From contig JANXYG010000007.1 in the NCBI GenBank assembly GCA_025350245.1, positions 1,615-65,614 on the forward strand: a DNA stretch of 64,000 nucleotides. The letters run 5' to 3'. Source of the DNA: Betaproteobacteria bacterium (GTDB lineage Bacteria > Pseudomonadota > Gammaproteobacteria > Burkholderiales > Ga0077523). This document shows, one piece after another, positions 1-15,880 of the stretch. Position 1 is the first letter of the stretch, and every line of letters begins with the position of its first letter. Under the pieces are notes generated by a model. The model was not told the DNA's origin. It did not search any database and saw only the letters and a program-made list of their open reading frames with translations. The position numbers were made by a program, and so were the translations under genes.

Positions 1-31
1 GGGGAAGTGACAGGTAGCCGCTTCTAACGGA

Positions 32-433
32 ATGAGCGAACTGACATACGACCCAGGCGAGCACAGGGCGAAGCATTGCTGGAACAATACTCATGCAGAA
101 GTAGTCCGGAATGGCTCGGCGGCGGTCGGCAAGTGCCCAAGCACGCTTGGCAAAGAGCAGGCTCGCAACCTGTTGGATGATGCAGAGTACGAAGGAAAGG
201 TGGCCGGCCAGCCAATCAGCGAAGTGCAGCCACAACGCATGTGGAACGTCCATCGGGGGGTTGTCTACGAGGCCGTGCCTACTCAGGCAGGGTCGTATCA
301 CGGATATCCTTGGTTCGGACGGCCGGGGCGAAATCGGCTCTCGCGCTCAGTGCGAGCCGCGCTAAAACAACGTGCGGAACAACAAGGTTTTGGTCGAGAA
401 TTTCGCGATTGGATGGCAACTCATGAAAGCTAG
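32..433 (+). CDS. hypothetical small protein (133 aa), possible ribonuclease-like toxin partner of the downstream ImmA/IrrE protein
   Basis: ORF track. The 3' end overlaps ATG 423 of the next ORF by 11 nt. GC is visibly lower than in neighbouring core genes. The segment AVPTQAGSYHGYPW...GRPGRNR weakly recalls RNase Sa (VLPTQSYGYYHEYTV...PGARTRGTRR); this comes from memory and is unverified. Confidence 0.5.
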   Translation: MSELTYDPGEHRAKHCWNNTHAEVVRNGSAAVGKCPSTLGKEQARNLLDDAEYEGKVAGQPISEVQPQRMWNVHRGVVYEAVPTQAGSYHGYPWFGRPGRNRLSRSVRAALKQRAEQQGFGREFRDWMATHES

Positions 434-1895
434 CCCGGTACTGCGCTTCGAGTTTTCGCCGGCTCAAGACCCCAATCTCCGGAATGATGGATGGGGCCAA
501 GGGACGCTTCAAGTGTATGGTCGACCCTACTGGTTCTTCAACTCCGAGAGTGATCCGCAGCCAGTGGAGTGGACTTGGGTAGACTTTCTAGAGCATGTTG
601 CCGAGATGTGGGGTTCCCTTATCGCGGAACAGGCATATCCATTTAGTTGGCTTGACGAAGCCACTCATCCAGGCGAGTTGTGGAAGGTCGCTGATCGGCG
701 CTGGGCGAAAATGGGGGGTACGGTCGCTGATCAGGAAGAGCCATTACTAGTAGCGTTCGATCGGCGACACAACTTGTCGGCGGCATGGAAGGGCATCGGC
801 TTACCCGCCTTGACTTGGTTTCGGGTTGGAGAGACGGTATGGCTTTGTCCCGAAGGAGGCGATCCAATTCGTGCTTCATTTCACGAATGTCGGAGTGCAC
901 TTTTGTCTTTTGGAAATGAACTCGCGGACGCCTACTCAGCTTCGAGCAATGCCCGCGTTGCTACCGCAGTAAGCGCGTGGCGGGGGCGAGGTGAAGTATT
1001 TCGTAGCCATTTTCCGGAGATTGCCACTGGACTGTCGCGAGATCAGCTCCTGTCAATTCAAGGTGGACAAAACGCATCTGGCTACTGGGAGTTCTTGAGC
1101 ACCTCCGATTGGGAGTCAGGCCAAGTCGCCGAAGGGGAGTTGCTTGCCGCAGCGAGGATGACTGCCGGCATACTCGATACCGCTTCGATTGGCAGAGTGG
1201 TTCGGGACATCCGCCGCCTGGGCAATCGTATTTGCGGGGAACTAGATACGCTGACTGCCAAGACTTCTGCCCACGTCTCTAGCGTCCAAGCTCGGTTTGC
1301 CTTCGAAGCTGGGTATTGCGCTGCAGACTTCTTTAAGGTGAGTTCTTCCATTACGAATCAAAAGTACGTAGATATTCGCGAGGTACTTGGAAGGCTGAAT
1401 GTTGGGTTGATCGATCTTGACTTAGGCACTAACAAAATAGACGCTGTTGCTATTTGGGGTACGCGTGGTCCGTATGTCGTACTGAATTCAGTGCGTAAAT
1501 ACGCAGAGAACGAGAAGCGGACCCGGATGACTTTAGCGCACGAACTATGTCACTTGCTGGTGGACCGAAAGGGCGGGCTTCCGTTTTGCGAAGTATTGGG
1601 TGGTCAGGTCGACGATTTTGTTGAGCGGCGAGCGAGCGCCTTCGCAGCCGAGCTTTTGCTACCACGTGAATCGGTGGAGTACGACTGGCGCCTCTGGCGT
1701 GACGGATTCCAGAATTTTTTGTTGATGCTGGGTCAGGTCTACGGAGTAAGTAAGTCAGTGGCCTGCGCCCAAATCCACAACTGCACCGTCTTCGCGAAGC
1801 TCGATCAGCTAGCGCAAGACTACGTAGAGAAACGCTTGCGCATCGAAGGGTACACAAATCCAGAGGCCGTCCGCGTTGTTGCTGGGGTTGTGTGA
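423..1895 (+). CDS. ImmA/IrrE-family (COG2856-like) zinc metallopeptidase domain protein with a large uncharacterised N-terminal region
   Basis: The C-terminal region has TLAHELCHLLVD (HEXXH) followed by ERRASAFAAELLLP, typical of ImmA/IrrE peptidases. The first ~380 aa are not recognisable. Start is ambiguous (ATG 423 vs GTG 372). Confidence 0.75.
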   Translation: MKASPVLRFEFSPAQDPNLRNDGWGQGTLQVYGRPYWFFNSESDPQPVEWTWVDFLEHVAEMWGSLIAEQAYPFSWLDEATHPGELWKVADRRWAKMGGTVADQEEPLLVAFDRRHNLSAAWKGIGLPALTWFRVGETVWLCPEGGDPIRASFHECRSALLSFGNELADAYSASSNARVATAVSAWRGRGEVFRSHFPEIATGLSRDQLLSIQGGQNASGYWEFLSTSDWESGQVAEGELLAAARMTAGILDTASIGRVVRDIRRLGNRICGELDTLTAKTSAHVSSVQARFAFEAGYCAADFFKVSSSITNQKYVDIREVLGRLNVGLIDLDLGTNKIDAVAIWGTRGPYVVLNSVRKYAENEKRTRMTLAHELCHLLVDRKGGLPFCEVLGGQVDDFVERRASAFAAELLLPRESVEYDWRLWRDGFQNFLLMLGQVYGVSKSVACAQIHNCTVFAKLDQLAQDYVEKRLRIEGYTNPEAVRVVAGVV

Positions 1896-1947
1896 GCCAC
1901 TCCTTCCGATCGATGGTCTTCCGACATCAGTTTTCCAATCCCGCCGA

Positions 1948-2400
1948 TCAGCCCATATCCTCCCGCACCGCATCGGCCCAGCAGTTGGGCGTTTCGTACA
2001 GCCTGACTCTTTCGAGCACCAGGTGATTGCCGTAGCGGTCGCGAAATGCCGGGTCGAGCAGCCGGAAGGCAACCACGGCCAGATGTTCGGCCGTCGGCGG
2101 CGAGTCGAACTCGATGGTGCGATGGCCGGGGATCGAGGCGAGGAAGGCACGCACGATGTCGTCGTCACGATGCACCAGGAATGCGTGGTCCCAACGCTCC
2201 ACCACTCGCTCGGCGGCAATGGCCTTGACCTCGGAAAAGTCCATGACCATGCCCTCGTTTGCCGCACCGTGGAGGCCGATCGGATCACCTGCGAGGGTGA
2301 CTTCGAGGGCGTAACGATGCCCGTGCAGGTGGCGGCAGAGATTATCGTGAGCGGCGATGCGGTGACCCGCATCGAACTCGAGACGGCGCGTGATGCGCAT
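1948..2400 (-). CDS. queD: 6-carboxy-5,6,7,8-tetrahydropterin synthase (QueD / PTPS family)
   Basis: 150-aa ORF with the FDAGHR...LHGHRY...E motif pattern and the size typical of QueD. Confidence 0.88.
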   Translation of the reverse strand: MRITRRLEFDAGHRIAAHDNLCRHLHGHRYALEVTLAGDPIGLHGAANEGMVMDFSEVKAIAAERVVERWDHAFLVHRDDDIVRAFLASIPGHRTIEFDSPPTAEHLAVVAFRLLDPAFRDRYGNHLVLERVRLYETPNCWADAVREDMG

Positions 2401-2508
2401 GGGATAGCGGCGCGGAAAAAAAACGCGCGAAGTGTAGCACCGGCCCGTCGCCGGGCCGGTTTTGCTGCTGGTATCGTTGTTCAGTTGGTCGGGGAGGGGC
2501 CGGACTTT

Positions 2509-2832
2509 TCAGGCGGCGCGGCGGTCGGCCACGCGTTTCTGAGGAGTGCGACTGGCGCTCGCTTCGGTCTTGAGGCGCCTGAACAGCACCGGTTCTTCGG
2601 CCTTGAGATAGCTCAGCACCTCGAAGTCGCCGCGCTTGACCCGCGACAGATCGATGCGATCGACATGCACGAGGCGCAGCAACTGGAGCACAGGTTTGGG
2701 CATGGTGCGACCACTCTCGTACCGCGATCCACCACTTTGGGTGACGCCGATCATGCCCCAGAACTCCTGCTGGTTCATGCCGAGCTTGTGGCGGATGTCA
2801 CGCGGATCATATAAACGGGTTTCTTTTTTCAT
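2509..2832 (-). CDS. XRE-family helix-turn-helix transcriptional regulator
   Basis: 107-aa ORF. The segment IRHKLGMNQQEFWGMIGVTQSGGSRYESGR matches the XRE HTH pattern. Confidence 0.75.
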   Translation of the reverse strand: MKKETRLYDPRDIRHKLGMNQQEFWGMIGVTQSGGSRYESGRTMPKPVLQLLRLVHVDRIDLSRVKRGDFEVLSYLKAEEPVLFRRLKTEASASRTPQKRVADRRAA

Positions 2833-3062
2833 GGGTGCCTCGTAGGATTTTTGTCATGCGTCGGTGGCCGCCGCTGTAGACACTTGGCTTTGAGCAAGCC
2901 GCGGGTCGATGAGTTCCATGCCAGCGGTATTGAAAAACGCGATCGGGGAGGCGCCCGGGTGCCAGGCAATGCGAGATCGGCAATTCGGCATGGCGCAGCA
3001 CCTCGGCGGCACGCGCCGGTTTGACCCGGTGTTTCGTGCACAGGTATATTCAGCAGGATATT

Positions 3063-3139
<77 letters not shown>

Positions 3140-3167
3140 ACAGACTGGCTCCACGCCGAACCTTTGT

Positions 3168-3243
3168 GTGCCCGTAGCTCAACGGATAGAGCACCTGCCT
3201 TCTAAGCAGGTGGTTGCGGGTTCGATTCCTGCCGGGCATGCCA
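3168..3243 (+). tRNA. tRNA-Arg (anticodon TCT)
   Basis: Acceptor GTGCCCG/CGGGCAT, anticodon loop CTTCTAA, GGTTCGATTCC T-arm, 3' CCA. Confidence 0.93.
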
Positions 3244-3393
3244 CCCCATAGGTTCGATGCAGCCAGGGTCGGCGCGGTCGTTTGTCCAGGCTGCTTCCGT
3301 CCAAGCTGTTCCTTGCCGCAAGCCAGGTTTTTGTCCATACTTCGGCGTCCTTTTGTGACTCGGATGCATCATCTTCGGGTTGCTCGGGTCGAT

Positions 3394-3470
3394 GGTGGCG
3401 GTAGCTCAGCTGGTAGAGTCCCGGATTGTGATTCCGGTCGTCGTGGGTTCGAGTCCCATCCGCCACCCCA
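3394..3470 (+). tRNA. tRNA-His (anticodon GTG), with extra 5' G(-1)
   Basis: GGTGGCGGTAGCTCAGC..., anticodon loop TTGTGAT, GGTTCGAGTCC T-arm, 3' CCCA. Confidence 0.93.
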
Positions 3471-3544
3471 GTTTCCGACGATTTCAACGGCCACCCCGGC
3501 CGTTTCGTATCTGATCGCGCTGTGCCGCGATCCTCGCCAACACT

Positions 3545-5136
<1,592 letters not shown>

Positions 5137-5140
<4 letters not shown>

Positions 5141-7044
5141 TCCAGCTCCGCGGCGTCACCCTGCTGCGCGGGGTCAAGCGGCTGCTCGATGGCGCCAGCC
5201 TGGCGGTGCATCCCGGCCAGAAGATCGGCATCATCGGCGGCAACGGTTGCGGCAAGTCGAGCCTGTTTCGCCTGCTGCTCAACGACCTTCACCCCGAAGC
5301 CGGCGACGTCTCCGTGCCGGCGCGCTGGGTCGTGGCCACGGTGGAGCAGGAGACCGAGGCGCTGGATCGGGTGGCGATCGAATTCGTCATCGACGGCGAC
5401 GCCGAGCTGCGGACCATCGAGCGTGAGCTTGCCGAGGCCGAAGCGGCGGAAGACGGCATGCGCCAGGGCGAGTTGCACGGGCGCCTGGGTGAGATCGACG
5501 GCTATGGCGCGCGGGCCCGCGCGGCCACTTTGCTGTCCGGTCTGGGCTTCGCGCAGGTCGATCATGTCCGGCCGGTGGCCGATTTCTCCGGCGGCTGGCG
5601 GGTGCGCCTTCAGGTGGCGCGTGCGCTCATGTCGCGCTCCGATCTGCTGCTGCTCGACGAGCCCACCAATCACCTCGACCTCGACGCCGTCATCTGGCTC
5701 GAGCAGTGGCTCAAGGCCTACCCCGGAACCTTGCTGGTCATCTCGCATGACCGCGAGTTTCTCGACAATGTCGTGGGCGCCGTGTGCCATTTCGAGAGCA
5801 AGCAGCTAAAACTCTATTCCGGCGGCTACTCCGATTTCGAGCGGGCACGAGCCGAAGCGCTCGATCAGCAGAACGCCCTGCATGTGAAGCAGCAGCGGCA
5901 GATCTCGCACCTGGAGTCGTACATCGAGCGCTTCCGTGCCAAGGCCACCAAAGCGCGGCAGGCGCAAAGCCGCATCAAGGCGCTCGACCGCATCAAGGTG
6001 GTGGCACGCGCGCAGGCGGATGCGCCCTTCGACTTCGAATTTGCCGATCCCGGTGGCGCCGCCGACCCGCTGCTGTTGCTCGAACATGTCGTCGGGGGCT
6101 ACGGCGGCACCCGCATTCTCGATGACGTGACGATCAACGTGCGCCCCGGTTCGCGCATCGGCCTGCTGGGCCGTAATGGTGCCGGCAAATCGACACTGAC
6201 CAAGCTGATGGCCGGCACCCTGCCGCCGATGACCGGCGAACGCCTTGAAGGCAAGGGGCTGCGCATCGGCTACTTTGCCCAGCACCAGCTCGAACAGCTT
6301 CGGTCCGACGACACGCCGCTACGCCACATGACCCGCCTCGATCCGCGAACCCGCGAGCAAGACCATCGCGATTTTCTCGGTGGCTTCGGTTTCCGGGGCG
6401 ACGAAGCCCTGATGCCCGTGGGGCCGATGTCCGGCGGCGAGAAGGCCCGGCTCGCGCTCGCCCTGATCGTGTACACCAAGCCGCATCTGCTGTTGCTGGA
6501 CGAGCCGACCAACCACCTGGATCTGGCGATGCGCGCCGCGTTGATGCTGGCGCTCCAGTCGTTCACCGGAGCGCTCGTGCTGGTGTCGCACGATCGCAGC
6601 CTGCTGCGCACGGCGGTCGATGAATTCCTGCTGGTGGCCGATGGCAAGGTGAGTCCGTTCGACGGTGATCTCGACGACTATCGCGACTGGTTGTCGGCCA
6701 AGCCCGCCGTCGCCAACAGCGCGCCGGGGCCGGCTCCCGACAGCGGTGCCTCGCGGCGGGACAAGCGCCGCGACGATGCCGTCGATCGCGGCCGGGCCGG
6801 GTCCCGGCGCAAGCCGCTGCAGCAGGAGATCACCACCGTGGATCGCGATCTGGCGCAACTTCAGGGGCAACGCCTTCAGCTTGAAAAGCGCCTCGCCGCG
6901 CCCGACATTCATCAAGGCGCGAATCGCCAATTGCTGGCCGATTGCACCCGCGATCTCGGGCAGGCAGGCGCCCGGATTCGGCAGCTCGAAGACCGCTGGC
7001 TTGTTCTTCACGAGCAGTTGGAGCAGTTCACCGACACGGTCTGA
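5137..7044 (+). CDS. yheS: ABC-F family ATPase (YheS-like) with C-terminal coiled-coil tail
   Basis: 635 aa, tandem ABC domains ([34 protein letters not shown] twice). GTG start overlaps the ybiT stop (GTGA). Confidence 0.85.
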
Positions 7045-7111
7045 GGTCGAAGCCGGATGTTGCTGGCCGGGAGAATCGTGCAGCCATCTCCACTACTGTA
7101 ACGGAGGCAAA

Positions 7112-8017
7112 GTGTTCAAGCGTATCGGACTATTCCTGATCACCAACCTGGCCGTGGTGTTCGTCCTGAGCATCACCGCGCAGTTGCTGGGCGTGAACCG
7201 CTGGCTCACCGCCAACGGCCTGAATCTCGGCGGCCTGCTGATGTTCTCGCTGCTGTTCGGTTTTGGCGGCGCCTTCATCTCGCTGGCGATTTCCAAATGG
7301 ATGGCCAAGCGCTCGACCGGCGCGCGCGTCATCGATGAGCCCCGCAACGCCACCGAGCGCTGGCTGGTGGATACCGTGGCGCGGCAGGCGCAGGCCGCCG
7401 GCATCGGCATGCCCGAAGTCGCCATCTACGAGGCACCCGAGATCAATGCGTTCGCCACCGGCATGAGCCGCAACAGCGCTCTGGTGGCGGTCAGCACCGG
7501 TTTGCTCAACAGCATGTCGAAAGACGAAGCCGAGGCAGTTCTCGGGCACGAGATCAGCCACGTGGCCAACGGCGATATGGTCACGCTCACCCTGATCCAG
7601 GGTGTGGTGAACACGTTCGTCATCTTCCTGTCGCGCGTGGTCGGCTACGTGGTCGACCGCGTCATCCTCAAGAACGACGGCCGCAACACCGGCATCGGCT
7701 TCTTCGTGGCGACCATGGTCACGGAAGTGCTGCTCGGCATCGTCGCCAGCATGATCGTGGCGTGGTTCAGCCGGCGCCGGGAATTTCGGGCGGATGCCGG
7801 TGGCGCAAACCTGGCCGGCCGCGACAAGATGGTCGGCGCCCTCCAGCGGCTCAAGCAGGCCTACGAGCCGGCGACCCTGCCCGAAGGGCTCCAGGCCTTC
7901 GGCATCTCAGGCGGCGGGCACGGCGGACTCAAGGCGCTGTTTCTCTCCCATCCGCCGCTGGATGACCGGATAGCGGCATTGCGCGCCACTGCCGCGAATT
8001 CGGCTGGTTCGCACTAA
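7112..8017 (+). CDS. htpX: membrane zinc metalloprotease HtpX
   Basis: [13 protein letters not shown]... N-terminus, [10 protein letters not shown] motif and transmembrane segments. GTG start at 7112 preceded by GGAGG at 7103-7107. The longer ORF from 6665 is rejected. Confidence 0.9.
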
Positions 8018-8033
8018 ATCACTGACCCAACTG

Positions 8034-8339
8034 ATGCGTAAATCACTTCGATATCCGAACCGCGCGCCGACTCACCCGGGCGCCATTCTTCGAGAGGACG
8101 TGTTGCCGGCAACCGGTCTCACGCGGGCGGAGGTTGCCCGGCGCCTGGGCGTGTCGCGGCTGTCGGTGTACGAGCTGCTGAACGAGAAGCGGGCGCTGTC
8201 GCCTGACATGGCGATGCGCCTGGGCCGGCTGCTCGGCGACGGGCCGGCGATCTGGCTGCGCATGCAGCAGACTCGCGACCTTTGGGCGCTTGAACAGCGC
8301 GGAGGCTATGAAGATATAGAGGCGCTCGCAGTGGCGTGA
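8034..8339 (+). CDS. higA: HigA-family antitoxin-like HTH protein (no adjacent HigB)
   Basis: 101 aa. HPGAILREDVL...GLTRAEVARRLGVSRLSVYELLNEKRALSPDMAMRL is the classic HigA/VapI pattern. Confidence 0.78.
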   Translation: MRKSLRYPNRAPTHPGAILREDVLPATGLTRAEVARRLGVSRLSVYELLNEKRALSPDMAMRLGRLLGDGPAIWLRMQQTRDLWALEQRGGYEDIEALAVA

Positions 8340-8436: not shown

Positions 8437-8528
8437 AACCCCTTGTTTCCATGGCGCCCCGAACACGAATCGAACGTGTGACCTACCCCTTAGGAGGGGG
8501 TTGCTCTATCCACTGAGCTACCGGGGCG
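8437..8528. repeat. 92-bp direct repeat (distal att site of the island), identical by eye to 15789..15880
   Basis: Manual comparison: AACCCCTTGTTTCCA plus the full tRNA-Arg(CCT) sequence plus 1 nt is present at both positions. Flanks diverge immediately outside. Confidence 0.9.
8452..8527 (-). tRNA. tRNA-Arg (anticodon CCT), duplicated full-length copy at the distal island end
   Basis: The reverse complement gives GCCCCGGTAGCTCAGTGGATAGAGCAACCCCCTCCTAAGGGGTAGGTCACACGTTCGATTCGTGTTCGGGGCGCCA. The upstream (5') flank is island DNA, so expression is uncertain. Confidence 0.8.
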
Positions 8529-8825
8529 GGGTCACATGCTCGCCGCCTTTCGCCTTACCCATCACACGCTTAGGTTGAAAATCGAAGGCGCCCCGGCACG
8601 GGAACGGTAGCCCCGTTGACAGGCGTTTTCAAGCGTTGACTGTGATGGAACTGTGATGGAGTTTGCGGGACCGATGGCCATCACTCGCATCAACTGGCGG
8701 GCCGGTTGCCGGTCTCCCTCGCGCGCGCGCGTTTTGTCGGGCGGGAAGCCTCGCGCGCGTGCGCGCGCGTGCGTAATGGTCAGGAAACGCCAATAAACAA
8801 TCCTAAAGTATTGATTAACAATAAG

Positions 8826-9074
8826 TTATTTCAACTGACTGTTGTTTCCGGAAAGGGCTTCGATGGCTCGCACGATGGCGCGGCTGTAGCTCTCGCCTGG
8901 GCGCATCTGTGCCACGAGGGCTTCGTACTGGTCGGGCGTCAGCAGCAGGTCAATGCGGCGCACCCCGGCCTTCGCTTGGCGCTCTCGGAAGAGGCGTAAA
9001 TTGCGGCGATTTATGCCCTTGCGCTGTTTGCGCTGCTGTCGTTCCAGACGGGCCAGCCATGTCGTCCGGCTCAT
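8826..9074 (-). CDS. small basic hypothetical protein (82 aa), second gene of the island cargo operon
   Basis: Its ATG at 9074 overlaps the TGA stop (9071-9073) of the upstream cargo ORF (ATGA). The sequence is Arg/Lys-rich (MSRTTWLARLERQQRKQRKGINRRNLRLFRERQAKAG...). The longer ORF form to 9131 is rejected. Confidence 0.5.
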   Translation of the reverse strand: MSRTTWLARLERQQRKQRKGINRRNLRLFRERQAKAGVRRIDLLLTPDQYEALVAQMRPGESYSRAIVRAIEALSGNNSQLK

Positions 9075-10534
9075 TGACCGGGTTCGCCTTGCTCGCGGCG
9101 GATTCGGCCTTCTAGGAGCCGGTACACCCACGGGCTGAAGACAGCACCCTGGCTGGCTGCCTTGTACAGAGACGCCCGAAAGCTGGCGGCATCGAAATAC
9201 TGACTCTTGAGCAATTCATGTGTGCTGGCCATCTGGGCCAGGAGTGCCCCTGGTGACTCCGATTTCATCGCGAGTACGGCCATGCAGACCCATCGGGCAG
9301 CCGTGGCGCCGGTAGCGATAGTCCATGTCAGTTGCCTATCGTCGCCGCCGACGAAACTGGCAATCAGATATGTAGCCGATAGCGCCAATCCCTCAAGCAG
9401 CGCGTACCCGACCAGCTTAATGACATCGGTAATGGGGAGGCTGAGAATCTTGTCCTCGGAAAACACCGATTCCTTATAGGCAACACACTCCGCATATATC
9501 AGCGCATCCATCAGAGCCCATTCCAGCGTCGGCGAGAACAACCTTGGGTCACGTAGAAGCTTGTTGGCGATGGATTTGAGTTCATCGACCTTGGGTTCGA
9601 AACCGTACCGTGGAGCGCCAGACTTGCCTTCACCATTTTTCACAATGTGGAACATCCCGAAGTGCCGCCAAAGCTCTTCGTAGTCGCTGGTGAGAGAGGT
9701 GCGTTCTAGTTCCGGTCGCGTTGCTACGAGAGCTAGAAAATCAGTCGGCCAGAGACCGAACATGTCGTTACCTTCAAAGCCTTCAATTTTCTTTGGCAAA
9801 CGAAATGCTGGGCGAATGTCGCGGAGGAATCCAAGTTGACTGATAAGGTCTTCGCGAGCCTCGGGAGACACCGAGAGTCTTGCGGCGGAAGATGCCAATT
9901 CGTTGACGATGGTTGGCATCTGACCGATTTCGCCTGCGTGCTCTTCCCGGAGGGCATGTCTTAATTCATCTGCGCGCGAAGACAGAACCCACCACGGCGT
10001 TTCTACTCTCCCGGTGATGACCTTCATTCGGATATCGGACAGAGACAGAACCATGTAGCCGTGCTCGTCAGGCGCAATTCCGCTGTCGGCCAGTCCTCGG
10101 GGCGTACAGTAGAAATCCATGCTCAGCGGCGAACCGCTATGGACCCAGAGTTCGCGGAACTGGTCCTCTGCCACGGCTATCTCGATTGTGCATTTGGCGA
10201 GATGCCAAGAGTAGCCGACCCTTACCCTAAGCAACCCCGACAGTGCGGCCCCGACTAGCGCCCGATGGAGGTCATCGGACGTGCTTTCGTCGCCGGTGGG
10301 CGGTTCTTGCAGGTCGGGGTGCGACCCATCAGCACATACGATGCGAAGGGTTGCTAGGTGAGTCCGCAGAGGGCCCTTGACGCCTTCGACTGGCACTGGT
10401 CTATCGATATCGATGGGCCAATCGAGCGCAAGCTCGCCACAGAGGGTCGCTTGGCCATTGTCATGGGGAACATGCCATTCCTTCCCCAGTACGCCGCACC
10501 AGCCGCGCAGAATCTTAGATGGAGAGTTCTTCAT
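9071..10534 (-). CDS. hypothetical cargo protein (~487 aa) with two predicted C-terminal transmembrane helices
   Basis: Long ORF in a visibly low-GC stretch. Hydrophobic segments are VIKLVGYALLEGLALSATYLIASFV and LTWTIATGATAARWVCMAVLAM. No family recognised. Start taken at ATG 10534 (MKNSPSK...) and uncertain; the ORF-track start at 10813 runs through the repeat cluster. Confidence 0.6.
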   Translation of the reverse strand: MKNSPSKILRGWCGVLGKEWHVPHDNGQATLCGELALDWPIDIDRPVPVEGVKGPLRTHLATLRIVCADGSHPDLQEPPTGDESTSDDLHRALVGAALSGLLRVRVGYSWHLAKCTIEIAVAEDQFRELWVHSGSPLSMDFYCTPRGLADSGIAPDEHGYMVLSLSDIRMKVITGRVETPWWVLSSRADELRHALREEHAGEIGQMPTIVNELASSAARLSVSPEAREDLISQLGFLRDIRPAFRLPKKIEGFEGNDMFGLWPTDFLALVATRPELERTSLTSDYEELWRHFGMFHIVKNGEGKSGAPRYGFEPKVDELKSIANKLLRDPRLFSPTLEWALMDALIYAECVAYKESVFSEDKILSLPITDVIKLVGYALLEGLALSATYLIASFVGGDDRQLTWTIATGATAARWVCMAVLAMKSESPGALLAQMASTHELLKSQYFDAASFRASLYKAASQGAVFSPWVYRLLEGRIRREQGEPGQ

Positions 10535-10683
10535 GCTTGGTTCTGGAAAATCTACTTGGCATTGGCATCGAACGTGACCACGAGCATGCACACGCACAAC
10601 AGCGTTTTCACCATCGGCTCCCCTCAGAAGTAGATTCCCAGTGCGGACAGCAACAGTAGCAGGCGAACCAGCCACCCGCACCT

Positions 10684-10792
10684 GTTCCCGGAGTTCCCGC
10701 GATTCCCGCCACCTATATGGTTGGCGGGAATCGCGGGAAAATCGGGCGCTTCCTGGATTTCCCGAAATTTCCCACTGCGGGAATCGCGGGAA
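10684..10792. promoter_or_regulatory. repeat cluster (candidate iterons/operator)
   Basis: Perfect 17-bp inverted repeat: TTCCCGCGATTCCCGCC (10694-10710) and GGCGGGAATCGCGGGAA (10723-10739), separated by a 12-nt AT-rich spacer. A third 16-bp direct copy lies at 10777-10792. Several more TTCCC/GGGAA pentamers occur between them. Confidence 0.7.
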
Positions 10793-10796
10793 CATC

Positions 10797-12815
10797 TCAG
10801 GCGCTCCATACAAACTCCGAATCGACCATCACAAGGCGCCTTGCCTGGAGCCCCGTCAACGCCGCCGTGGCACGTTCGGTGCGCCGCTTCTGCTCACAGG
10901 TCAGATGCCGCCGTATCGCGTCTAGCGCATCCTCAAGCGGTACAGCGGGCTTCCCTTGGGGAAGTGAGTCCGGGGCGTCTGTCGGGCGTTCCTTTGACGC
11001 TGATTTGAGCAGTTCGGTAATGGCGTCCCATGCGACACGCTGATTCCCGCCCTTCGGTGGCATCGCCCGCTTTACCTCGCTCGGCGTGTCGTTGCGCGTG
11101 ACGACGCAGGAGGTTATCGGCTCGCCGTCGAGGTGATTGCCGATTTCGACCGGCCAAAGGGCGAACTCATGCGCGATGCCGTCGGCGCCATCCTTGGACT
11201 TGTCGATTCTCCAGGCTTGCCCGGTATCGGTCCGGATAACCTCGATGCTGGCGTCGAGGGCCGCAATCAGGCTCGAATGCCCGCGTAGTCCCCGGCTTGC
11301 ATCCTTGCCGGAGTGGTGAACCAGCAGAACCAACCCGCCGCAGCGACTCTGCAACGTCTTGGCTGCGTCGATGATGTGGCCCATGTCTGTGCTGCTGTTC
11401 TCGTCGGCGCCACTGGCGGCGCGGTTTAACGTGTCCACGACGAGAAGCCCCCCCGCGCAACCGGACGCCTGCACGGCATCGGCCAGAGACGTTACGTCAT
11501 CGCCCGCCAGCAGCCCGAACGGCTGCATCACGAACCGCAGCTTGTCGGGCATGGCCCGGTTCCGATGAAGTTCCCAGGCACGCACCCGCTGAGCGAATCC
11601 CGCTTCACCTTCGAGGGCGAGGTAGACGACAGGCGCGGCCATCCCCCGGCAGTCGAACCAGCGGGCACCGTCGGCCACGGCGGCGCACAGGTCAAGAGCA
11701 AGAAAGGATTTCCCGCTGCCACTGGCGCCAAAGATGCACGCCAACCCCGTAGCGGGCAGGACGCCACGCACCAGCCATTGCAGGGGCGGCGCCTTCGCAA
11801 CCGCGTCGGCGGCGAGCAGTCGGTAACGCATGCCGGGCGTTTTGGCATGGTCGAGCAGGTCCGCCAGGGCATCGCTGCCGTGCTCCGCTGCGTAGTCGTT
11901 GGCGTCGAAGTTGTTCGCCCTGTCCGATGGCATCACAACCCATGAGCCGTGCACTGCGAGGGCTACCTTTTCGGCGTTGGCTTCCTGGCCACGGTCTGGC
12001 ACCAGCACCAGCGGCAGAGCGCCATGAGCGTCCCGCAGTGCCCGTGCCACGGTCGCCATGCGCCCAGCCCCGAACGTCACCACGGCAGCGCAGCCCGTCG
12101 CGCGCCAGCATGCCCAGGCTTGCCCGATGCCTTCGACGATGAACACGCGGGCGGACTCCGCGATATCGCCCACGATGAACATGGAATCGGCAAACGACGC
12201 GCTGGGAAGGTTCAGCTTTTTGGCGGTACCGGGTGGCGGTATCAACTGGACCGTGCGCAATTCGCCATCGAGCGAGCGCGCCGGGACGACAAGCCAGCCC
12301 GAGACGCGATGGCCACTGACGTGCAGGGCATCCCCGGCAGGGACCAATCGCAATCCGTCGGCACCGCCGCGCTTCGCGATGACGTACGGGTGCGCCTCGG
12401 TTGCGGGTTCGCAGCGCGCCCAGAGTTCGCCGGGCGTCACTCCGGCCGCGTATGCGGGCCTTGGTTGCGATTGCGGGGCGTGGTCCGCGTGACGGTCCCG
12501 GCCGCGCTTGCTGGGCGCGTTGTAGCGCGGCTGAGGCGGCCTGCCGGGATGATGCCTACCGACGGACTGAGCCATGTGAATCAGCGTGCCAGCCGTTACG
12601 GGGCCGGGGCGCACCGAATGCCAAACGGTCGCGCAATCTCGCGCGGAATGAAAGTTTGACGCAGGTTCCGACCATGCTGTGAAATCATCGAGCGAGAGCC
12701 CGGAACTCTTTGCGGCCATGGCAATGACCACCCATTGTTCTCGCGGGCATGCGGGGTCAAGACTGCGAAGTGCGGACAGGGCGGTGTCGCGGTCAATCAT
12801 GCCCACCTCCGCCAT
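10797..12815 (-). CDS. island replication protein: PriCT-2-like N-terminus + Toprim primase + RepA/AAA_25-type helicase ATPase
   Basis: Motifs REQWVVIAMAAKSSGLSLDDFTAWSE (PriCT-2-like), VFIVEGIGQAWACW...LVPDRGQE (Toprim-like), Walker A GASGSGKS and Walker B LLVVDTL. Start may be M1 (12815) or M6 (12800). Confidence 0.82.
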   Translation of the reverse strand: MAEVGMIDRDTALSALRSLDPACPREQWVVIAMAAKSSGLSLDDFTAWSEPASNFHSARDCATVWHSVRPGPVTAGTLIHMAQSVGRHHPGRPPQPRYNAPSKRGRDRHADHAPQSQPRPAYAAGVTPGELWARCEPATEAHPYVIAKRGGADGLRLVPAGDALHVSGHRVSGWLVVPARSLDGELRTVQLIPPPGTAKKLNLPSASFADSMFIVGDIAESARVFIVEGIGQAWACWRATGCAAVVTFGAGRMATVARALRDAHGALPLVLVPDRGQEANAEKVALAVHGSWVVMPSDRANNFDANDYAAEHGSDALADLLDHAKTPGMRYRLLAADAVAKAPPLQWLVRGVLPATGLACIFGASGSGKSFLALDLCAAVADGARWFDCRGMAAPVVYLALEGEAGFAQRVRAWELHRNRAMPDKLRFVMQPFGLLAGDDVTSLADAVQASGCAGGLLVVDTLNRAASGADENSSTDMGHIIDAAKTLQSRCGGLVLLVHHSGKDASRGLRGHSSLIAALDASIEVIRTDTGQAWRIDKSKDGADGIAHEFALWPVEIGNHLDGEPITSCVVTRNDTPSEVKRAMPPKGGNQRVAWDAITELLKSASKERPTDAPDSLPQGKPAVPLEDALDAIRRHLTCEQKRRTERATAALTGLQARRLVMVDSEFVWSA

Positions 12816-13155
12816 TCGCCATCCAGCGATGCAGCTTTCGACGGTCCGCAGCGGTCAGGTGATAGATGCCGCGTTTCACCTCGAACCCATCGCGGTCGAA
12901 TACAGGCGTCCGAGTGCAGGGCAATTGCAGGCCGCGTTTGCGCAGTTCCAAGACAAGGTCCGGACCGTTCGAGCAACCTGCCTCGAAGTCGATGTGCTCA
13001 CGCGGCATCGGGCGGCGCAAAAGTCCGTTCAGCGCACGGAGGTGGCGAGGATTGGTCGTGCCTGTGAATCGACCATTGTCCGCCTGTGCGATAGACTGCG
13101 GATTCGGTTCGCGACGGCCACCACCTTCCCCAAGGTCCCCGGTGGCCGTCATCAT
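12793..13155 (-). CDS. hypothetical island protein (120 aa), possibly winged-helix DNA-binding
   Basis: ORF overlaps the neighbouring genes on both sides (operon-like). TNPRHLRALNGLLRRPMPREHID resembles conserved small proteins seen beside AlpA/primase genes in such islands (from memory). Confidence 0.5.
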   Translation of the reverse strand: MMTATGDLGEGGGRREPNPQSIAQADNGRFTGTTNPRHLRALNGLLRRPMPREHIDFEAGCSNGPDLVLELRKRGLQLPCTRTPVFDRDGFEVKRGIYHLTAADRRKLHRWMANGGGGHD

Positions 13156-13370
13156 TTCGTGCTCCCGCTGAGCAGCGCGCGCAGGTCAGACACCCGCCAT
13201 GCGAGCCGACCGTTTATGCGCAAGGGGGAGATAGGGCCGTTCCCGGAGCAAGCCCACTTCCGCAGGGTTTGGGGCTGCCGGTTGACCGTCCGGGCTGCCG
13301 GGGTGGTTGGCAGCGTGTCGCATTTCTCGGCCAATGCAGCCAAGACAGGAAACTTCTCGTCGCTCATCAT
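13152..13370 (-). CDS. AlpA/excisionase-type small HTH protein
   Basis: 72 aa. TPAARTVNRQPQTLRKWACSGNGPISPLRINGRLAWRVSDLRALL fits the AlpA/Xis-type HTH pattern. The position in the island is typical. Confidence 0.65.
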   Translation of the reverse strand: MMSDEKFPVLAALAEKCDTLPTTPAARTVNRQPQTLRKWACSGNGPISPLRINGRLAWRVSDLRALLSGSTK

Positions 13371-13557: not shown

Positions 13558-14634
13558 TCATAGCGTTTCGGATAGGGAATCCCATTCGGCAGACCAGTCC
13601 GGGAAATGCTGGTCGATGAAGTTCCCGATGCGAACCTTGTTTGCTCGTCGCGTCGCCACGAGACACATGCCAACCATGGCGGGATTCCATGTTGACGGGA
13701 TGTTTCCCGCCTTGCCTATTGTCACGCGCGCGTGTTTGAGCCAAGCAGGCACATCCGATAGGGCCTTGTCGAGGTCGAGCCTTTTCAGTAGCGGCCAATC
13801 GCTTGCAATAAGTTCCGCTTTGGTCAACGCACGCTTCTGATAACCGCCATCTGGCGCAACCGCGCCGGCAGAACGAGCGTCGGGCTCATCCAGCAGATAC
13901 ATGGAGAATTCGGACTGCGACGCAAGCCAGCGATTGACCGGCGCAACAGCGGTGACCTCGTGCATCGTTGCAGGATGGCACGTATCACCGGCGTTGTAGC
14001 CACGTTGCCGGTCGCGAGGATGTAAGCGCGCCTGCGCCGCAAAGGCGTGTACCTGTTCAGGCACCGGGAAGTCGCTAGGGTCTGCGAAGTTGATTGGATT
14101 CCGTAGGGGAATCTTCCTGTCGGATACGGCAATGACCAGTAATTCTCGCCATCGCGGTATCGCTATCGGTGAGAGTTGGGCGAGTTCGGTCGCAACGTCA
14201 TCGAGGGAGACGATTCCCGCATTCCGTCGCGCTGCCAATTCGGCGGCTTCCTTGTTCCGGCGCTCCACCAATTTGTCCACGAGCGGACCCAACCCCATAG
14301 CGCGCAGTATCACGTCGGCATCGGCCGGGGTCACATACCAATCCCAAGGTTCCGCCTCCACTTCGGCGAGGTCTGAAGGCGGGGCATCGTTCTCGATGTG
14401 GTGCACATCCATGCTCCCATCTCGGACCAGTTCCAGAATGCGGGGAAGCACGAGCGGAATTCCGCTGTTTGGCTCTGGCGTGCCTTGCTCATTCAATGAC
14501 GCGATGATTATCTGGTGCAGCCTCTTGTCGAAGCCATCGTGCTGGTAGTCCGGATGCAGGTACGACACTGCTAAGGCAATCTCCATGGCCAACCTGGCAA
14601 GGTCAGGGCGGCTGTTGTCGTTCGTCGTATTCAT
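13558..14634 (-). CDS. hypothetical island protein (~358 aa)
   Basis: Long ORF between the integrase and alpA-like genes. Start taken at MNTTNDN (14634). No family recognised. Confidence 0.55.
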   Translation of the reverse strand: MNTTNDNSRPDLARLAMEIALAVSYLHPDYQHDGFDKRLHQIIIASLNEQGTPEPNSGIPLVLPRILELVRDGSMDVHHIENDAPPSDLAEVEAEPWDWYVTPADADVILRAMGLGPLVDKLVERRNKEAAELAARRNAGIVSLDDVATELAQLSPIAIPRWRELLVIAVSDRKIPLRNPINFADPSDFPVPEQVHAFAAQARLHPRDRQRGYNAGDTCHPATMHEVTAVAPVNRWLASQSEFSMYLLDEPDARSAGAVAPDGGYQKRALTKAELIASDWPLLKRLDLDKALSDVPAWLKHARVTIGKAGNIPSTWNPAMVGMCLVATRRANKVRIGNFIDQHFPDWSAEWDSLSETL

Positions 14635-14732
14635 CGCACCCCTTCGAGCGCAAACCTTCAAGAGGGGGCGCCAGACAGGCGGGCGAAGGTGTCCCGCTTT
14701 TCGAGCCGTCGCTCTAGTCTGGCGCTTGCTGG

Positions 14733-15725
14733 TCAGGCGAGCTTCTTCACCAATTCCGATGCCTTGAGGTGCGTGTAGCGTTTCAACATCTGGAGCGTCT
14801 TGTGTCCGCTGATGGCGGCAACCTCCATCGGGTTCAACCCGAGTTCAAAGAATCGTGACACGGCTTCATGCCGCAGGTCATGAAAGCGCAAGTCTTCGAT
14901 ATCCGCCGCATGTACAGTCCGGCGCCAGACGTTTTCTAGGCTGTCGGCACGCTTCCAGGTCCAGAACACCCGCCCGTCCTTGATGTGCCGGGGCAGGCCC
15001 GACAGGGCAGCAACGGCAGCGGTACTCAGGGGCACCTGACGGGCGTCGCCGGTCTTCGTGTCGTTCAGGGTCGCCACCCGCGCGGACAGGTCCACGTCGG
15101 CCCAATGCAGGGAGAGGATTTCGCCCATGCGCATGCCGGTCTCGATGGCGAAGCGCACCACGGGCGCGAGCATAGGCGCACGGGTTCCCTTGCATGCTTC
15201 CATCAGATGGGATTCTTCGGGGCCAGACAGGCGACGGTCGCGCCCTCTGGCCACCTGAGGACGCCTAACCAGTTTCGCCGGGTTCGCGACCATCGGGATG
15301 CCCCAGTCCTTCACGGCCACGTCGAACAGGTGCGACAGGGTGTTTAGCTCCTTGACCACGGTCGCCCCCGCGAGTCCTGCGGCTAGGCGCGCATCACGGT
15401 AGTCGGCAATGTGCGTACTGCGAATTGCGGCAAGTGAGAAGGCGCCGAAGTGTTGGCGTAGCTGGTTCAGCCGTTGGGCCTCGTTGCGGGCGGACTTCTT
15501 CATCGGCGTCACTTCCAGCCGGTAACGGTCGATGAGTTCCGCCATGGTCGTGCGTTCGGCCTCGGTGCGGTCAACGAAGATGCCCCGGTCCATCTCTGAT
15601 TCGAGGGTTCGCGCCCATCGTTTCGCATCTGACTTCGTGTCGAAACTCTTGGCGAGGGGTTTCAGCCCGGCCCGCCTCACCTGCACCTGCCACCTGCCGC
15701 TGTCCAGTTTGCGAAGATTTGCCAC
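14733..15725 (-). CDS. tyrosine-type site-specific recombinase (island integrase)
   Basis: C-terminal HDLRHEAVSRF...GHKTLQMLKRYTH motifs. GTG start at 15725 preceded by GGAGGTG. The longer ORF-track form (start 15818) would run into the tRNA repeat and is rejected. Confidence 0.9.
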   Translation of the reverse strand: MANLRKLDSGRWQVQVRRAGLKPLAKSFDTKSDAKRWARTLESEMDRGIFVDRTEAERTTMAELIDRYRLEVTPMKKSARNEAQRLNQLRQHFGAFSLAAIRSTHIADYRDARLAAGLAGATVVKELNTLSHLFDVAVKDWGIPMVANPAKLVRRPQVARGRDRRLSGPEESHLMEACKGTRAPMLAPVVRFAIETGMRMGEILSLHWADVDLSARVATLNDTKTGDARQVPLSTAAVAALSGLPRHIKDGRVFWTWKRADSLENVWRRTVHAADIEDLRFHDLRHEAVSRFFELGLNPMEVAAISGHKTLQMLKRYTHLKASELVKKLA

Positions 15726-15788
15726 TTCACACCTCCAACTGTGATGCAGGTGTGATGGAAAGGCTCCGGCGTCATGGTCGAGGCTGTT

Positions 15789-15880
15789 AACCCCTTGTTT
15801 CCATGGCGCCCCGAACACGAATCGAACGTGTGACCTACCCCTTAGGAGGGGGTTGCTCTATCCACTGAGCTACCGGGGCG
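15789..15880. repeat. 92-bp direct repeat (integrase-proximal att site)
   Basis: Identical by eye to 8437..8528. Confidence 0.9.
15804..15879 (-). tRNA. tRNA-Arg (anticodon CCT), copy retaining the chromosomal 5' flank
   Basis: Same 76-nt sequence as 8452..8527, anticodon loop CTCCTAA. The integrase gene lies immediately 3' of it. Confidence 0.93.

Follow-up and report, generated by a model that had tools for sequence, protein, structure and literature searches.

The window analyzed here is a stretch of 64,000 nucleotides of contig JANXYG010000007.1 from a Betaproteobacteria bacterium, and all coordinates below refer to it unless another locus is named. At 8826-10534 it harbors two overlapping genes, gene A, which encodes a protein of 487 amino acids (aa), and gene B, which encodes one of 82 aa, and both lie within a small integrative island. 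An original prediction, made without database searches, had described the pair as a low-GC cargo operon in a P4-like island and as a candidate defence module with a membrane effector. Its coordinates, both protein sizes, the Arg/Lys-rich composition of the second protein and the ATGA overlap of the genes are exact, and so is the position of the pair downstream of the primase-helicase gene (10797-12815) and its repeat cluster (10687-10796). Gene A was found to be exchangeable cargo of the island and to have homologues in defence-island-like neighbourhoods and prophage immunity regions, while gene B belongs to the island backbone. Gene A is tentatively read as a stand-alone anti-phage gene.

The island comprises 7,352 bp and is delimited by perfect 92-nt direct repeats, each with a complete tRNA-Arg(CCT) gene, as attachment sites (att). 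It holds 7-8 open reading frames (ORFs), all on the minus strand, which in the direction of transcription follow the order int, int-alpA RNA, orf367, alpA-like gene, orf120, primase-helicase gene, iterons, gene A, gene B, about 300 bp of non-coding DNA and att. Its features are listed below; L018 and L020 are two contigs with sister islands.

8437-8528, left att repeat copy, with tRNA-Arg(CCT) at 8452-8527 on the minus strand (repeat search, 100% identity, spacing 7352; ARAGORN, Rfam)
8529-8825, no strand, non-coding island end between gene B and att, conserved in L018
8826-9074, minus strand, gene B, basic protein of 82 aa (Arg+Lys 19, or 23%; Asp+Glu 7)
9071-10534, minus strand, gene A, 487-aa cargo protein with ATG start, of an unannotated family
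9077-10560, no strand, swapped cargo cassette holding gene A alone, the sole stretch without DNA similarity to L018 and L020 (MAFFT)
10552-10614, minus strand, truncated leader ORF of 20 codons (MVKTLLCVCMLVVTFDANAK and a stop codon) with a GGGGAG Shine-Dalgarno sequence, compared with the ORFs of L018 and L020
10624-10809, minus strand, 61-aa ORF with a hydrophobic C-terminal tail (WLVRLLLLLSALGIYF), overlapping the iterons and the primase stop codon, kept as an ORF in L018 and L020
10687-10796, no strand, iteron-like repeats, GCGGGAATCGCGGGAA in direct and inverted copies (repeat search), near-invariant in L018 and L020
10797-12815, minus strand, 672-aa primase-helicase with PriCT_2, Toprim_3 and AAA_25 (Pfam and PHROG matches)
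12793-13155, minus strand, orf120, backbone gene between the AlpA-like gene and the primase gene, 91% identical in L018, at the up1 position of PICMI islands
13152-13370, minus strand, AlpA/excisionase-like helix-turn-helix (HTH) protein of 72 aa, with weak matches only (HTH_17, E=0.051; PHROG 66 excisionase, E=0.013)
13558-14661, minus strand, orf367, low-GC (0.585), without a family match in Pfam, PADLOC, PHROGs or NCBIfam
14655-14724, minus strand, int-alpA RNA motif, Rfam RF02996, full-length match (72.2 bits against a gathering score of 35.8)
14733-15818, minus strand, tyrosine integrase (Phage_integrase, E=1e-27, Pfam)
15789-15880, right att repeat copy, with tRNA-Arg(CCT) at 15804-15879 on the minus strand (repeat search, ARAGORN, Rfam)

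Beyond the replication genes the island does have a variable slot for cargo. Gene B has few homologues, none of them distant (81-87% identical), and two are encoded on L018 and L020, contigs that share the iterons and the primase-helicase (82% identical) of the window island. L018, reaching further upstream, also has the AlpA-like gene (69% identical) and orf120, and it likewise terminates in tRNA-Arg. In place of gene A, both contigs carry other genes between the iterons and gene B. One encodes a protein of 139 or 124 aa that has a signal peptide or lipobox; the other, in the reverse orientation, encodes a PEP-CTERM protein of 230 or 220 aa, for which a weak Lcl_C match was also obtained in L018. 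The DNA of the window is 82-86% identical to that of L018 and L020 on either side of a 1.48-kb dissimilar block, seen in blastn as a gap at island_rc 5309/5323-6804, which corresponds to window 9077 to 10558-10572. Homology is lost about 25 nt upstream of the gene A ATG and restored 2 nt before the gene B ATG, so that the stop codon of gene A consists of backbone sequence. On the left, the break lies about 17 codons inside the gene for the secreted protein of the sister islands, and the leader stub of the window, whose stop lies 17 nt before the gene A ATG, is a remnant of the signal-peptide start of that gene. CAATG is present at both cassette junctions in the window. The exchange of cassettes is very clean, the cargo having been replaced between a leader stub that was kept and the start codon of the backbone gene that follows.

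These swap boundaries, from the stub to the gene B ATG, indicate that the 1.48-kb cassette with gene A was inserted between the origin and gene B essentially without a promoter, and its expression would presumably be driven by conserved upstream signals. A leader common to three islands, with complete divergence after it, suggests a fixed 'expression dock' for exchangeable cargo. A scan for promoters and terminators around the genes gave signals no higher than the shuffled expectation. Gene A is foreign, low-GC DNA: its GC content is 0.570, and 0.62 at third codon positions (GC3), as compared with 0.660 and a GC3 of 0.75 for the primase gene and a GC content of 0.642 for the window. The lower GC content claimed earlier for the pair holds for gene A and fails for gene B, which at 0.614 equals the island average.

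Gene B belongs to the backbone of the island family and is not a partner of gene A. Its homologues are confined to the sister islands, with different cargo upstream, and tblastn did not find it in any other fetched locus with a gene A homologue (0 of 12 other contexts). The idea of a two-gene operon acting as one module could not be upheld, as gene B is kept in sister islands without gene A and is absent beside the other homologues. The TGA stop of gene A overlaps the ATG of gene B as ATGA at 9071-9074, and the translational coupling of the two genes would be a consequence only of the position of the cassette junction. The AlphaFold2 model of gene B (pLDDT, the predicted local distance difference test score, 70; 1 is to be added to the model numbering for protein residues) has a basic N-terminal helix at 2-34, a coil at 35-45 and helices at 46-55 and 62-79. 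The stretch RRIDLLL-TPDQYEALVAQM-RPGES-YSRAIVRAIEAL resembles a ribbon-helix-helix pattern of strand, helix, G-x-S and helix. This assignment is unconfirmed, and no ribbon-helix-helix match was found in Pfam, in PDB sequence searches or by Foldseek of the model. Matches to PHROG 536 'transcriptional regulator' (E=0.023) and to NCBIfam UrfF (E=0.041) lie below any cut-off, and all seven gene B homologues, searched against Pfam at loose thresholds, had no recurring family. Gene B is conserved at the distal island end, beside the att-proximal non-coding region, and the most economical guess is that it may be a small DNA-binding regulator or a recombination accessory factor of the island.

Gene A, by contrast with gene B, belongs to a broader protein family. 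An exhaustive HMMER search of 1.84 billion representative proteins detected 124 homologous clusters at E<=1e-3; at E<=1e-10 there were 81, and 23 remained at E<=1e-30. Most members have 480-510 aa and align from a common start. Since 124 homologous clusters exist, most of them with about 480-500 aa and a common start, gene A is a real gene rather than a chance ORF. A start called automatically, giving a protein of 574/580 aa, was rejected as an over-call, as it extends upstream into backbone and iteron DNA. A protein homology search with gene A returned 12 matches, a profile query built from the family alignment returned six, and a scan of metagenome contigs yielded three loci. Neither a pattern scan of the GTDB species-representative genomes with the single protein and the profile nor a scan of the IMG/VR viral contigs detected relatives. 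Together with its absence from phage and plasmid records, this shows that the family is rare and mostly known from metagenome assemblies. As the original prediction had stated, gene A has no recognisable domain: searches of Pfam (E<=0.1), PHROGs and NCBIfam at meaningful thresholds, of PADLOC and of PDB sequences were all empty, and among 40 aligned family members searched against Pfam (E<=1) no family recurred. Neither gene A nor gene B could be assigned to a known non-defence family by remote homology and structure searches. A signal peptide is absent from the sequence of gene A.

An AlphaFold2 model of gene A was built with the family alignment (pLDDT 86.1, predicted template modelling score 0.80); the query lacked Met1, and the model numbering equals the protein numbering minus 1. 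The model has a beta-rich domain at residues 8-173 and an all-alpha domain with consecutive helices at 334-363, 366-395 and 399-423, which in protein numbering places the N-terminal beta domain at about 9-174 and a hydrophobic helical hairpin at about 367-424. Conservation differs strongly between the domains, with a mean pairwise identity in the family that rises from 15% in the N-terminal domain through 25% in the middle part to 35% in the C-terminal domain, where R413-W414 are invariant and E380 is near-invariant. Foldseek searches of the model against PDB and BFVD gave no match at E<=0.001, and PDB sequence and profile searches returned nothing meaningful. The best of the weaker matches, those of the N-terminal domain to OB-fold and single-stranded DNA-binding (SSB) proteins, were rejected as insignificant.

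The two hydrophobic helices that had been described at the C-terminus are present, and as transmembrane segments they are marginal, with 19-residue Kyte-Doolittle maxima of 1.59 and 1.36 and a short second arm. The helix at about 372-396 is the most hydrophobic segment in most family members (19-residue Kyte-Doolittle mean 1.5-2.45), and the conserved Glu is located in this first arm. The six-residue tip of the hairpin is polar/acidic, with 0.12 Lys+Arg as compared with 1.10 Asp+Glu per sequence; it is followed by a W-ITTG-T--RW segment, and Lys/Arg-rich flanks are found on both sides. As judged from its sequence, this charge pattern would fit a hairpin with both ends in the cytoplasm (cytoplasm-in/cytoplasm-in). 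The hairpin could be a true membrane anchor, a conditionally inserting hairpin, or the core or oligomer contact of a soluble helix bundle.

The genomic neighbourhoods of gene A and its homologues fall into 12 independent contexts, including loci with restriction-modification (R-M) genes, as follows.

Window island: gene A in the cargo slot of an island with integrase and primase
L015: unrelated island with P4-type integrase, AlpA, a PriCT_1/AAA_25 primase and a 62-aa ORF, then the homologue (36% identical) in the same distal slot
L004 (5242-11530): type I R-M S subunit, DUF2726 and PDC-M36A, and directly upstream a 58-aa ORF with a helicase of about 1500 aa that is PDC-S37/Hhe/Mokosh-like
L013 (571-7380): upstream, a 64-aa ORF and a related helicase
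L010/L011 (L010 886-10074): SLFN_AlbA_2, a PDC-M54A-like protein of 1772 aa, and a type III-like methylase and helicase
L012 (233-2850): SLFN_AlbA_2 and a complete type I R-M system
L016: homologue and an S24 repressor gene in divergent arrangement, GmrSD close by
L014: Castellaniella caeni prophage, a 308-aa form without the N-terminal domain that adjoins the S24 repressor gene in the immunity region
L003: an AlpA-like gene upstream and PDC-S31 (DUF2971-like) downstream
L001: thermonuclease and ADP-ribosylglycohydrolase
L002: PRiA4_ORF3 and IS66 transposase
P0130 contig: an AAA_5 ATPase and an S-adenosylmethionine (SAM)-synthetase-like gene

As raw counts without background correction, recognised or candidate defence genes occur in six of the 12 contexts (L004, L013, L010/L011, L012, L016 and L003), and in four of the 12 (the window island, L015, L014 and L003) the homologue occupies a cargo or immunity position of a mobile element, L003 being counted in both groups. 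These defence-island-like neighbourhoods and prophage immunity regions agree with the original suggestion that gene A is a candidate uncharacterised defence gene. We consider it plausible, if tentative, that gene A is a stand-alone gene for anti-phage defence or abortive infection, possibly membrane-active, in a PICMI-like cargo slot. The host element is a 7.35-kb minimalist integrative island, probably a phage satellite, and in this mechanism gene A would defend against phages by abortive infection or superinfection exclusion. The fast-evolving N-terminal beta domain may sense a phage-derived cue, while the conserved C-terminal helical domain may be the effector, its hairpin (E380, loop, R413-W414) anchoring in or inserting into the inner membrane and thereby compromising it.

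Several observations weigh against gene A as a membrane-active defence gene. Searches with gene A and gene B against the hidden Markov models of PADLOC-DB v2.0.0 detected 0 families at E<=1, and tblastn with gene A, P0004 and P0053 gave no match in 50,697 phage or 72,556 plasmid records. The neighbourhood figures are raw counts from only 12 contexts. The comparison with related islands, which had been put forward as a check, has a mixed outcome: gene A is not invariant, gene B is kept, and the slot is variable as predicted (L018 and L020 differ from the window), but its alternative cargo consists of secreted and PEP-CTERM proteins and not of known defence genes, so that the slot may serve for accessory genes of any kind. 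Just about 11-13 hydrophobic residues make up the second arm of the hairpin before the invariant Arg-Trp, both arms of the window protein stay under the classical Kyte-Doolittle threshold of 1.6, and the hairpin could instead be buried at the centre of a soluble bundle or mediate oligomer contacts. The 'membrane effector' of the original prediction is, with a charge-free polar tip and one arm short for spanning a bilayer, still a matter of interpretation. The word 'satellite' is interpretative as well, since neither capsid nor packaging genes occur in the island and a helper phage is not known.

The alternative that survives best is that gene A is a general accessory ('moron') gene, serving for example the envelope or host physiology, and that the slot is a general cargo dock. 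We regard this as possible but rather unlikely. The secreted or lipoprotein-like and PEP-CTERM/Lcl_C proteins in the slot of the sister islands, the lack of a PADLOC match to gene A and the contexts L001 and L002, in which defence genes were not recognised, all speak for it. Against it stand the six of 12 contexts with recognised or candidate defence genes and the cargo or immunity positions in the window island, L015, L014 and L003. Moreover, a variable N-terminal and a conserved C-terminal part form a pattern typical of sensor-effector immune proteins, and gene A has no signal peptide.

Some neighbours recur at deep divergence, which raises the question of whether the gene A family comprises effector or accessory subunits of multi-gene systems, of which the window copy would be an orphan; a PDC-S37-like helicase and SLFN_AlbA_2 are the candidate partners. 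The pairing of a 58/64-aa ORF and a helicase of about 1500 aa with the homologue is found in both L004 and L013, where the helicases are 38.5% and the gene A homologues 45% identical. SLFN_AlbA_2 accompanies the homologue in both L010 and L012 (SLFN_AlbA_2 proteins 43% identical, gene A homologues 40%), and a 223/261-aa protein, 48% identical, is common to L004 and L010. However, the orientation, spacing and presence of these neighbours differ among the loci, the partners are missing from the window, L015, L016, L014 and L001-L003, and the homologues of L012 and L016 are 63% identical to each other, yet their neighbours differ, which points to independent mobility of the gene. Because orientation and presence vary and such similar homologues have different neighbours, a self-contained gene is favoured over a fixed multi-gene system, and we judge the multi-gene explanation improbable. 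The recurring neighbours could be alternative partners or could reflect shared island ancestry.

It is very unlikely that genes A and B constitute a toxin-antitoxin or addiction system keeping the island stable, in which gene A would be the membrane toxin and gene B a small antitoxin of the ribbon-helix-helix kind. The ATGA overlap, the hydrophobic hairpin of gene A and the small, basic gene B with its strand-helix-G-x-S-helix sequence pattern would suit such a pair. Gene B is nevertheless 81-87% identical in sister islands without gene A, tblastn placed it beside no other fetched gene A homologue, the homologues have diverse or no downstream partners, and the ribbon-helix-helix fold found no support in Pfam, PDB or Foldseek. 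The conserved co-occurrence of both genes that characterises a type II toxin-antitoxin system is not seen here. Least probable of all is a role of gene A in the life cycle of the island itself, by helper-phage interference, packaging redirection or induction sensing, for although the island is small, has a phage-type replication module and contains no further gene that would be a candidate for exploiting a helper, gene A is missing from sister islands of the same backbone, its homologues occur outside such islands among R-M and other defence genes and in a prophage, and gene A is low-GC foreign DNA.

If it is true that stand-alone gene A protects against phages, it represents a new single-gene immune family with a fold unmatched in PDB or BFVD, and the split into a variable and a conserved domain leads to clear predictions of sensor and effector. 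A far-reaching form of this reading, which we hold to be doubtful, is that gene A founds a new class of single-protein abortive-infection effectors with an unseen fold, a hypervariable beta sensor and a helical domain whose hairpin (E380 and R413-W414) conditionally enters and permeabilises the inner membrane, carried by a new PICMI-like satellite lineage of high-GC proteobacteria whose expression dock (fixed promoter, Shine-Dalgarno sequence and leader) accepts promoterless cassettes. At the level of annotation, two likely errors are corrected, the over-long 574-aa gene call and the reading of genes A and B as one module.

Further features of the island concern its replication and integration. 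The iteron cluster is the probable replication origin, and the 61-aa ORF that overlaps it is uncertain, being either protein-coding or a mere reflection of conserved origin DNA. The primase-helicase is about 30% identical to primase-helicases from phage genomes, which is consistent with a phage-parasitic or phage-derived replicon; scans of the IMG/VR viral contigs detected no relatives of the primase or of gene B. The longest ORF of the integrase begins at a GTG within the tRNA-Arg copy, and the peptide MFGAPWKQGV is also encoded by the other tRNA copy, so that the true start lies probably about 30 codons further downstream, near VANLRKL. The int-alpA RNA motif sits just downstream of the integrase gene and is separated from the AlpA-like gene by orf367; the literature searched held nothing useful on its function. 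In the unrelated island L015 a non-homologous 189-aa gene takes the integrase-adjacent position of orf367, which may be a second variable slot, at the place of iolg/icg in PICMI. Between gene B and att, alternating (GC)n tracts occur at 8713-8770. A ACTGTGATGGA doublet at 8639-8660 recurs near the opposite island end at 15738-15759, and such doublets near both ends are candidate integrase arm-binding sites.

A metagenome contig of 7,324 nt (L021, positions 1-7324), obtained from four samples, is 99.99% identical to the island alone. Its ends fall inside the 92-nt repeats, as expected from repeat-induced assembly breaks; its use as evidence of a circular form was rejected, as breaks at these sites speak neither for nor against excision. 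A megablast search of the plasmid records with the whole island gave no match.

Outside the island, a HigA/Xre-type HTH gene at 8034-8339 (plus strand) abuts the left tRNA-Arg copy. An RsaL-like/MqsA-like HTH gene is located at 2509-2832 (minus strand), near the other tRNA cluster. At 32-1895 (plus strand) lies a low-GC (0.52-0.56) gene pair in which a 133-aa ORF overlaps the gene of a 507-aa protein. The latter has a C-terminal Peptidase_M78 (ImmA/IrrE) domain and PADLOC matches to RmrA and CapP (E down to 9e-13). A tRNA Pro/Arg/His cluster adjoins this pair, which may represent a further module that is mobile or linked to defence.

Compared with known systems, the position of some family members recalls the exclusion genes of prophage immunity regions, such as lambda rexAB and sieB-type morons. 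The analogy is positional: the truncated member of the Castellaniella caeni prophage lies by the S24 repressor gene and the L016 member is divergent from one, whereas similarity in sequence or structure was not detected. Conditional pore formers with a buried hydrophobic hairpin include the colicin pore domains, the diphtheria toxin T domain and Bcl-2/Bax. The all-alpha domain of gene A, with its central hydrophobic hairpin and a polar/acidic tip without Lys and Arg, offers a functional analogy to them, although gene A has no structural match in PDB. SLATT domains and the two-transmembrane (2TM) effectors of CBASS and Pycsar likewise resemble gene A, which is found in defence neighbourhoods and in which helices flank the hydrophobic helical hairpin. 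One weak Foldseek match of gene A had as its target a protein with a 'SMODS and SLOG-associating 2TM effector domain'; its probability of 0.51 and E-value of 0.23 are below significance. In contrast to these effectors, gene A has no SLATT or other Pfam or PADLOC match, and none recurs in 40 family members; it also has no nucleotide-signal synthase partner, its second arm is short, and it possesses a large N-terminal beta domain of its own.

At the level of the element, P4-like satellites carry a variable defence hotspot (PMC9122126; PMC10085698), an idea that may be applied to the window island by analogy. The likeness comprises integration in a tRNA gene, a tyrosine integrase, an AlpA-like protein (weakly matched), an alpha-type primase-helicase and a variable locus with foreign low-GC cargo. 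The window element measures 7.35 kb as compared with about 11 kb, and the hotspot of P4 lies between psu and int, whereas the window slot lies between the origin and gene B. Psu, Delta and Sid had no match among six island ORFs searched with Pfam and PHROGs (gene B, gene A, primase, orf120, AlpA-like and orf367), the integrase being compared with Pfam only. The term P4-like was thus too specific, and membership in that group was rejected, the layout of PICMI fitting the synteny better.

PICMI are satellites of Vibrionaceae with the order int, iolg/icg, alpA, up1, prim and up2; defence systems, among them the new UP2, are found between prim and att, the primase is of the DUF3987/DUF5906 type, and integration takes place next to fis (PMC10803314). 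Several differences set the window island apart, as its primase is PriCT_2/Toprim_3/AAA_25 and not DUF3987/DUF5906, it integrates in tRNA-Arg(CCT) and not next to fis, it has an extra distal backbone gene (gene B) and the int-alpA RNA motif, and its host is of high GC content and not a Vibrio. The likeness is one of architecture: gene A and UP2 are alike by slot position. In this architecture both elements have about 6-7 kb with int, an int-adjacent gene of unknown function, alpA, one small gene, primase, cargo and att, and accessory or defence genes between the primase gene and the attachment site. Capsid and packaging genes are absent from both, and int, a weakly assigned alpA and prim are co-located in the window island without morphogenesis genes. 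If the reading of gene A as a stand-alone defence gene is true, the island extends the idea of a minimalist satellite with a cargo slot, so far described for the PICMI of Vibrionaceae, to another replication module, another attachment site and another group of hosts.

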